A stretch of 18,953 nucleotides of DNA from a virus. The notes beneath the pieces were generated by a model. It ran no database searches and was not told where the DNA came from. It was given only the letters and a program-made list of their open reading frames with translations. This document shows, piece by piece, positions 1 to 713 of the stretch. The stretch lies in UHGV virus genome UHGV-1695118; one strand, 5' to 3'. Both the position numbers and the translations under genes were made by a program. The first letter of the stretch is position 1. Each line of letters starts with the position of its first letter.

Positions 1-713
1 CCACCACGGCTACGCCATTGGGTTAACGCCCACTCAAATACTAAAGTGATCTCATTCTCCGTATACGCTTTACGTGTTTTTGTTTCTGTCAGTAGTTCTA
101 CGAATGGCTTAGCATCACGACATTTGCATCCTGCCTTGTCGTTGTAGAAGGCAAGGCAACGCAATGCCGCTTCGTTTACGCCATCCTGATTGACCATTTT
201 TTGTTCATTTTCGACAATACACGAAGTGTATATATCTTTTTCTCTTTCTTTTTCTACTTCTAATTCTAATTCTAATTCTAATTCATGACCCTTTCCTGAC
301 CCGGTCATGACCCTATCATGACCTTTTTGTGTTGGATTGATTAACTTTTCTAATTTTAATTGCTCCTTCGCTGTGTTTATGGCGGCCCTGTAAGCGCTTT
401 TAGAAGTCATTGATTGGTCCAGCCTTTTCAATAACTTTAAACAAGTTATGTGGCCTTGAGAACATTCAAACAAACCAATTTCGATGAAGTATTTCATCAT
501 TTCTTCTATACGTTTTTCAGTAGATCCGACGTTTCGCGCAATTATTCTTGCGTCATGTCGTAGGTCAAAAGTTAGATTGTGCTGATCTACGTCATAAGTT
601 ATTAGTTCTAGGCAATACCAATAAAGCCCGTACCCTTCCAGGCCATAATCTAACAAAACGTTTTGAAGTTTTTCATCGCGGTTCGCATCGCTGTCATGCT
701 TAAACCACTTCAT
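1..713 (-). CDS. Replication initiator / replisome-organizer-like protein, N-terminal 237 codons (ORF continues beyond window position 1)
   Basis: Hand translation of the minus strand gives an uninterrupted frame from ATG (713-711) to the window edge. GGAGG lies 9 nt upstream. The N-terminus MKWFKHDSDANRDEKL resembles the conserved start of phage replisome-organizer proteins. Absent from the ORF track because there is no in-window stop. Confidence 0.6.
   Translation of the reverse strand, partial: MKWFKHDSDANRDEKLQNVLLDYGLEGYGLYWYCLELITYDVDQHNLTFDLRHDARIIARNVGSTEKRIEEMMKYFIEIGLFECSQGHITCLKLLKRLDQSMTSKSAYRAAINTAKEQLKLEKLINPTQKGHDRVMTGSGKGHELELELELEVEKEREKDIYTSCIVENEQKMVNQDGVNEAALRCLAFYNDKAGCKCRDAKPFVELLTETKTRKAYTENEITLVFEWALTQWRSRG
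252..324. repeat. Hexamer tract (TTCTAC/TTCTAA)x5 (252-281) followed by three direct copies of TCATGACC(C)T (283-292, 305-314, 316-324), inside the replication gene
   Basis: Read directly. The TCATGACC copies are spaced 22 and 11 bp apart. On the coding (minus) strand the tract encodes KGHELELELELEVEKEREKD. Confidence 0.8.

Follow-up and report, generated by a model that had tools for sequence, protein, structure and literature searches.

Why should a phage gene for a replication initiator carry, in the middle of its own coding sequence, a set of evenly spaced DNA repeats next to an easily melted tract? The question is raised by the left end of an 18,953-nucleotide stretch of the viral genome UHGV-1695118 (hereafter the window, meaning the whole stretch that was analysed), where the minus strand encodes a predicted initiator that we call Rep. 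Positions 1–1300 of the window share 93% identity with Escherichia phage MagusPhagus and 88% with mEp515, and the window belongs to a mEp021-like (mEpimmI) E. coli phage. The MagusPhagus/mEp515 group consists of mEp021-like, Nus-dependent, non-lambdoid 'mEpimmI' coliphages that have been described as abundant in the human gut, and the paper reporting their genomes mentions neither an origin nor iterons for either Rep allele (PMC11893012). From the comparisons presented below, we consider it very probable that this temperate, mEp021-like coliphage has its vegetative (theta-type) replication origin at positions 217/229–326, within its own initiator gene. The first-pass annotation of this DNA had read the locus as initiator repeats beside a melting tract inside an initiator gene, in the style of lambda O and SPP1 gene 38, and all the computational tests that were run agree with that reading.

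The Rep open reading frame (ORF) starts with the ATG at 713 and continues past the left end of the window, which holds its N-terminal 237 codons (1–713, minus strand; defined by translation, Pfam and PHROG); in relatives the full-length protein has about 350 amino acids (aa). Within this ORF lies an iteron-like array of four 11-bp units at 283–326 (no strand assigned), identified by Tandem Repeats Finder (TRF), repeat finding and motif counting. The coding-strand sequence of the region is AAAAA GGTCATGATAG GGTCATGACCG GGTCAGGAAAG GGTCATGAATT AGAATTAGAATTAGAATTAGAAGTAGAAAAAGAAAGAGAAAAAGATATATACACTTCGTGTATTG, in which the first four blocks after AAAAA are the units in their order; the unit core is GGTCATGA, and the third slot is degenerate, with GGTCAGGA in place of the core. 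Exact matches to TCATGACC were found at 283, 305 and 316 on the plus strand and at 303 on the minus strand, the last because GGTCATGACC is palindromic. These four matches, all within 283–323, are the only ones in the 18,953 bp, where 0.40 would be expected, and at least four were reached in 0 of 200 dinucleotide shuffles. A further, degenerate copy, TCCTGACC, lies at 294, and the array is therefore a four-unit tandem with an 11-bp period; TRF reported a period of 11 with 4.2 copies over 282–327, and a separate repeat search returned spacings of 11 and 11 at the array. The three exact copies that had been noted at first pass (283, 305 and 316) thus stand, whereas the three-copy layout with spacings of 22 and 11 bp does not: there are four units in a strict 11-bp period, one of them degenerate. 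The array accordingly offers at least three direct, helically phased repeats as candidate initiator-binding sites.

The array is abutted by a hexamer tract. TRF identified 5.5 copies of TTCTAA at 252–284 (96% matches) and 3.5 copies of TCTTTT at 235–255, in keeping with the five tandem hexamers and the further T-rich stretch described at first pass. Together, (TTCTAA)5.5 and (TCTTTT)3.5 make up a candidate DNA-unwinding element at 229–288 (no strand assigned; delimited by TRF, composition and stability), which has a GC content of 23–30% and a purine-rich coding strand and encodes ELELELELEVEKEREKD. GC content drops to 23% over 221–280, and by nearest-neighbour free energy 229–288 is the second least stable 60-mer of the 18.9-kb window (z = 3.4), so that an easily melted AT-rich tract adjoins the repeats. 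The number of TTCTAA (Glu-Leu, EL) units differs among close relatives (L001, L002 and L008–L043), ranging from 1 to 4 EL pairs, and the tract at 252–284 is the longest EL version among the relatives compared; this variation would fit slippage in a tract that does not need a precise length. Directly beyond the AT-rich tract lies a 15-bp palindrome, ATACAC-GAA-GTGTAT (217–231, no strand assigned; read from the sequence). The same 17 bp is present in mEp021-type alleles in another reading frame (DIYTSCIV versus NNTLRVLE), and the palindrome was not found in mEp554, L008 or L044. It may have an accessory role in the origin or mark a recombination (mosaic) junction; its absence from these three leaves a role as an obligatory part of the origin unsupported.

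Both the repeats and the tract are situated entirely in the linker-coding part of Rep, as had been proposed for an EL-repeat linker: the minus-strand ORF from ATG 713 encodes the stretch ...KGHDRVMTGSGKGHELELELELEVEKEREKD... at this place. The repeats encode aa 130–144, after the Lin1244_N domain (DUF4373; aa 3–87) and before the conserved C-terminal domain, which begins at about aa 177. The array thus lies inside the initiator gene, between its N-terminal and C-terminal domains. The assignment of the gene to a replication-initiator type, likewise made at first pass, agrees with its Lin1244_N domain, its PHROG matches and its position in an early operon divergent from a cI-like repressor gene. 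The Pfam match to Lin1244_N (E = 3.8e-11; 44 bits versus a cutoff of 25) is above the gathering threshold. The best PHROG match is phrog_20981 (function unknown; E = 5e-126); families named 'replication initiation protein' and 'replisome organizer' match less strongly, the latter being phrog_5968 (E = 2e-5, aa 56–167). Over the shared part Rep is 99% identical to the MagusPhagus protein and 95% identical to the mEp515 protein (350–351 aa). The proposed repeat binder is the Lin1244_N/DUF4373 domain, here taken as aa 1–100 (414–713, minus strand; Pfam and AlphaFold), a predicted winged helix-turn-helix (wHTH). An AlphaFold (AF2) model of it built from 42 homologues (predicted local distance difference test, pLDDT, 77) displays a long helix, a helix-turn-helix and a beta-hairpin wing and is compatible with DNA binding. 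In a sequence-profile search of the PDB the domain gave a weak match to the Crp/Fnr wHTH of 3dv8 (E = 0.034), and the top Foldseek matches were all wHTH regulators, again weak (E = 0.04–0.2). NCBIfam gave no matches for Rep or for the small protein encoded upstream of it, and no paper on what the domain does, or on an origin associated with it, turned up in a literature search for DUF4373, Lin1244 and PF14297.

We then asked how the repeats and the domain are distributed among other phages. When IMG/VR was scanned with the N-domain, 80 loci were recovered: 36 mEpimmI-like loci, two that are 81% identical and 42 marine-type loci (65–72% identical), the last with a wide variety of unrelated C-terminal domains (Phg_2220_C, domains of unknown kind and, in one case, a T5orf172 insertion). 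In almost all of them the N-domain is followed by the same layout, namely rTCATGAy, the same motif again after 11 bp, a degenerate TCAGnAAA, (T/C)CATGCA and then AAGATAAGATTAGATTAGATAAGAAT. The first-pass annotation had named functional homologues devoid of the repeats as one observation that would speak against an origin; at least three phased CATG cores are in fact present in the linker of 35 of the 39 non-redundant loci. Successive CATG spacings of 10–12, 21–23 or 32–34 bp account for 92% in the linker versus 4.5% in the rest of the same loci. Homologues at a greater distance (~50% identity) are flanked by cro and an SF2 helicase gene, and their DNA reads TCATGAC-N4-TCATGAC-N4-TCAGGAC, then AGAAGAGAAGAG. 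Two subfamilies have a different core and retain the 11-bp phase: L044 has switched to CCATGG with spacings of 22/11/11, and L091, which adjoins a DnaB-like helicase gene, has switched to TCCGGA with spacings of 11/11/22, these being all four CCATGG and all four TCCGGA in the respective locus. The reciprocal scan used the DNA pattern alone (TCATGAY-N4-TCATGAY-N4-TCAG) against the 2.9 million viral contigs of IMG/VR and gave 95 matches. Of these, 92 lie on the same strand as a Lin1244_N domain, 45–90 nt downstream of it, and fall into 46 distinct DNA clusters; two of the other three are cut by the end of the locus and one is without the domain. The repeat cluster occurs only once in 50 kb of the MagusPhagus genome. 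These results show that the repeats are tightly and reciprocally linked to the N-domain across many phages, the Lin1244_N domain being their sole constant companion. In one locus, L081 (IMGVR_UViG_3300008122_000024), a T5orf172/MUG113 (GIY-YIG-like) domain is inserted at codons 124–206 between Lin1244_N and the repeats, and both the repeats and the tract are still present downstream of the insertion.

Selection at the DNA level was assessed with a codon alignment of 35 non-redundant marine-type homologues, in which the pairwise same-codon rate was determined at conserved degenerate residues. Mean codon identity was 0.46 in the N-domain (88 columns) versus 0.88 in the repeat/tract region (9 columns; Mann–Whitney p = 4.9e-6). 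The comparison of repeat conservation with synonymous divergence, which had been put forward at first pass as a check, thus came out strongly positive. The codons of the repeat/tract region are fixed (His CAT in 33/33, Gln CAA in 31/31, Asp GAT in 28/28, Lys AAG in 25/25, Arg AGA in 33/33 and Leu TTA in 26/26), while the same six residues use mixed codons outside it, and in one Val/Ile column the third base is 100% C and the first base varies. Conservation in the same homologues is 91–100% at core positions and 40–70% at spacer positions; in 39 mEpimmI-like sequences the GGTCATGA cores are invariant, with changes confined to the spacers and the degenerate slot. Copies of a single DNA motif encode HD, VMT, S and GHE in the window, and in marine phages the fourth copy encodes VMQ; the tract gives ELELELE in the first of these clades and DKIRLDKN in the second. 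Of 38 homologues, 31 show a tract period of 5 nt (AGAnn units; autocorrelation 0.57, controls 0.26), and in the E. coli clade the period is 6 nt. Neither the 11-nt nor the 5-nt period arises from codon structure, and the selection is therefore on DNA. Purifying selection acts on the DNA itself and not on the protein, and across relatives it is found together with linkage to a predicted DNA-binding domain.

A second line of evidence comes from an alignment of the Rep proteins of eight phages of the mEpimmI group. All eight have a common C-terminal domain, starting from ...VNEAALRCLAFYNDKAGCKCRD, which is fused to two unrelated N-terminal modules. The first, in the window, MagusPhagus and mEp515, combines Lin1244_N with the GGTCATGA array. 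The second, in mEp021, mEp554, mEp010, mEp044 and mEp013, has an HTH_36/DnaD_N-like, lambda-O-like domain (annotated 'DNA replication protein O') and carries at the equivalent position in the gene four 22–23-bp direct repeats with an internal dyad, GGTGACTCTGTGTCACTACCCCC, which by their sequence resemble the classical iterons of lambda. N-domain and repeats change together and have therefore been exchanged as one unit, as is expected of a specificity module of initiator and origin.

How could such an origin work? The early leftward transcript would give rise to Rep, whose N-terminal winged-helix domain (Lin1244_N) may bind the four GGTCATGA units. With a period of 11 bp all sites would be on one face of the helix, and an ordered Rep oligomer comparable to the lambda O-some could form; the resulting strain would then open the adjacent low-stability purine/pyrimidine tract (TTCTAA)n(TCTTTT)n, and the conserved C-terminal domain would recruit a helicase or a loader to the bubble. 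Transcription through the gene may assist, as at ori-lambda. Rep binding, melting, helicase recruitment and origin activity are all inferred here. A bolder version is also conceivable, although we regard it as rather doubtful. Lin1244_N, three to five palindromic hexamers phased at 11 bp and the tandem 5–6-nt purine-rich units might constitute a portable origin cassette with an opening mechanism of its own, in which a winged-helix monomer would sit at each helical turn in a one-sided filament, the strand-specific AGAnn or GAAnnA repeats would be more than a passive AT-rich unwinding element and provide periodic single-strand contacts for the initiator, comparable to the DnaA-trios beside DnaA boxes, and the degenerate slot TCAGnA, itself conserved, would have a function of its own.

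Several points weigh against an origin at 217/229–326. In mEpimmI phages Rep has no obvious helicase or loader gene beside it, and the least stable 60-mer of the window lies elsewhere, in the intergenic stretch 1992–2051 (z = 3.9). In some relatives, such as L091, the tract is GA-rich and not AT-rich, and easy melting may not be its key property. The matches that hint at DNA binding by the N-domain are weak, for fold and for sequence alike (E = 0.03–0.2), and an 11-bp period is tight for dimeric winged-helix proteins. The same data would also fit sites that the initiator binds for autoregulation alone. This last point leads to the alternative that survives best, an operator of Rep or of another regulator, acting within the gene in autoregulation, as a transcriptional roadblock or in copy control, with replication starting elsewhere, for example at 1992–2051 with its lowest stability in the window. 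Phased palindromic hexamers are typical of operators too, and the fold of the N-domain resembles Crp/MarR-type regulators. We nevertheless consider an operator unlikely as the whole explanation, since the repeats are always trailed by a conserved low-complexity purine/AT tract under DNA-level selection, are placed exactly where the lambda-O-like sister allele has its classical iterons, and travel with the N-domain while the C-domain and the neighbouring genes change, none of which an operator would need; moreover, origins commonly double as autoregulatory sites, and the two roles are compatible.

It is less probable still that the conserved DNA is a mosaic junction, that is, a short patch of homology for the exchange of N- and C-terminal modules that was conserved through recent recombination. 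The C-terminal domains do diverge widely right after the tract, and the 217–231 palindrome is shared by two alleles in different frames and missing from others. Recent transfer would, however, keep all positions alike, in contrast to the conserved cores and variable spacers of the homologues, and the switching of the core with retention of the 11-bp phase is explained by protein recognition and not by recombination or drift. A third alternative dispenses with a DNA function and takes the pattern as a by-product of a conserved low-complexity linker (HDxVMTxS...ELEL or DKIRLDKN) or of slippage in a tolerant linker. The region does encode a charged, repetitive linker, and the hexamer copy number differs among close relatives as it would after slippage, but this explanation is largely refuted and in our view very improbable: synonymous sites barely vary here but do so freely in the N-domain, the periods of 11 bp and 5 nt are not multiples of 3, one DNA motif underlies unrelated residues (HD, VMT, S and GHE or VMQ) in three reading frames, and the cores are invariant while the spacers vary. 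Least probable of all is an element acting at the RNA or transcription level (mRNA structure, or the plus-strand, antisense terminator-like hairpin that a scan lists at 303–323, with its T-run), because the number of terminator-like sites is within shuffle expectation, the stability of the minus-strand fold of 215–345 is not significant (z = −1.4, equalled by 19 of 200 shuffles) and the hairpin is no feature of the family, in which spacing and spacers differ.

The genes next to Rep were also inspected. A cI/LexA-type repressor gene is located at 1280–1927 on the plus strand (Pfam HTH_3 and Peptidase_S24; annotated as cI repressor in mEp phages); divergent from it on the minus strand come a gene for an 85-aa winged-helix protein at 720–974 (phrog_4617, E = 2.9e-22) and then Rep. 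The small gene sits immediately upstream of Rep, where lambda has cro, and its product is a paralogue (~32% identity) of the N-domain of the lambda-O-like Rep allele in sister phages. By tblastn it was found only in mEpimmI-like loci and was absent from the 42 marine-type loci, where the repeats are retained; it exists in several alleles with 60–100% identity among phages whose repeats are identical. Since the gene varies or is absent while the repeats stay, its product is probably not their specificity partner and was rejected as the iteron binder; it may be a Cro analogue or a replication accessory. The 12-mer GCATCATGTACC occurs twice within this gene, 57 bp apart, and resembles the iteron core, which is probably incidental. 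The exact 12-mer pair GGTACATGATGC (802–813 and 859–870) was rejected as a set of extra initiator sites, as phages with a different allele of the small gene do not conserve it.

Between the repressor gene and the Rep operon there is a 27-nt imperfect inverted repeat (1189–1215 and 1223–1249; 70% complementary, 7-nt gap), which is probably part of the immunity operator/promoter region. The motif TACAAAATGG (at most 1 mismatch) has 11 copies in the window versus 2.3 expected, a number reached in 0 of 200 shuffles, with positions at 1197–1206, 1285–1294, 2040–2049, 9697/9762, 15413/15439 and 6158/6182. The cI-like repressor gene has copies on either side of its start, one copy falls in the AT-rich intergenic stretch 1992–2051 just after that gene, and several form inverted pairs elsewhere; the motif is a candidate operator or regulatory motif of the phage group.

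If the repeats and tract in Rep are an origin, Lin1244_N/DUF4373, a domain that is common in enteric and marine phage genomes and usually annotated as 'hypothetical', gains a proposed and testable function as an origin-binding initiator domain, and the sequence rule would predict the origin of Lin1244_N phages straight from their DNA. It would also locate a hitherto undescribed, predicted origin of the mEpimmI coliphages. With two interchangeable initiator/origin modules on a common C-terminal domain, these phages offer a natural system for the study of initiator–iteron specificity, and the core variants TCATGA, CCATGG and TCCGGA are ready-made specificity swaps. Practical uses lie in improved annotation and in phage-derived replicons. 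As a kind, such an origin is textbook; what is new is the first origin prediction, well supported and family-wide, for the widespread, uncharacterised Lin1244_N/DUF4373 initiator family.

The predicted origin can be compared with several known ones. Iteron origins of theta plasmids (pSC101, R6K, pPS10 and P1) and the Rep-gene origins of lactococcal phages (TP901-1 and Tuc2009) have phased direct repeats, a winged-helix initiator and an adjacent unwinding element. In the plasmids the iterons measure 17–22 bp and are found outside rep, and DnaA boxes are usually present as well. Unlike them, the present locus lacks the DnaA boxes of DnaA-dependent, oriC-like origins: TTWTNCACA occurs in the window only at 2543 and 16131, not above chance, and nowhere near the region.

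SPP1 oriL lies in gene 38, where repeated AB boxes adjoin an AT-rich unwinding element and the organizer G38P recruits the helicase (PMC5737612). The location within the initiator gene is shared; for Rep itself there is a weak PHROG match to 'replisome organizer' (aa 56–167). The two differ in the host phylum and the repeat sequences, and Rep has no match to Pfam Phage_rep_org_N; SPP1 has a second binding region, oriR, whereas a single cluster is present in 50 kb of MagusPhagus.

At ori-lambda, initiator-binding direct repeats are followed by an AT-rich tract in the direction of transcription, in the middle of gene O (PMC7466680). As in the window, the origin lies between the N-terminal DNA-binding domain and the C-terminal domain and encodes a flexible linker, and the N-domain and the repeats are one specificity module that is swapped between phages. 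The AT-rich region of lambda is also purine/pyrimidine-asymmetric and has a palindrome after it. In contrast, the N-domain of the window's initiator is outside the lambda O family (Pfam reports Lin1244_N only, and the O-like HTH_36 domain is carried by the sister allele); the 11-bp units have a 6-bp palindromic core and a period of one turn, whereas the 19-bp iterons of lambda are about two turns apart; the melting tract consists of tandem 5–6-nt purine-rich units; and no P-like loader gene follows Rep of the window type. Rep plausibly works like O without belonging to the O family. A further comparison is with the allele of mEp021, mEp010, mEp044, mEp554 and mEp013. It differs in its HTH_36/DnaD_N-like N-domain, where the window has Lin1244_N, and in its 22–23-bp iterons with an internal dyad (GTGAC...GTCAC). 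It shares with the window the phage group, the position of the gene, the C-terminal domain, four direct repeats at the equivalent place and, in most such alleles, the 17-bp palindrome after the tract.

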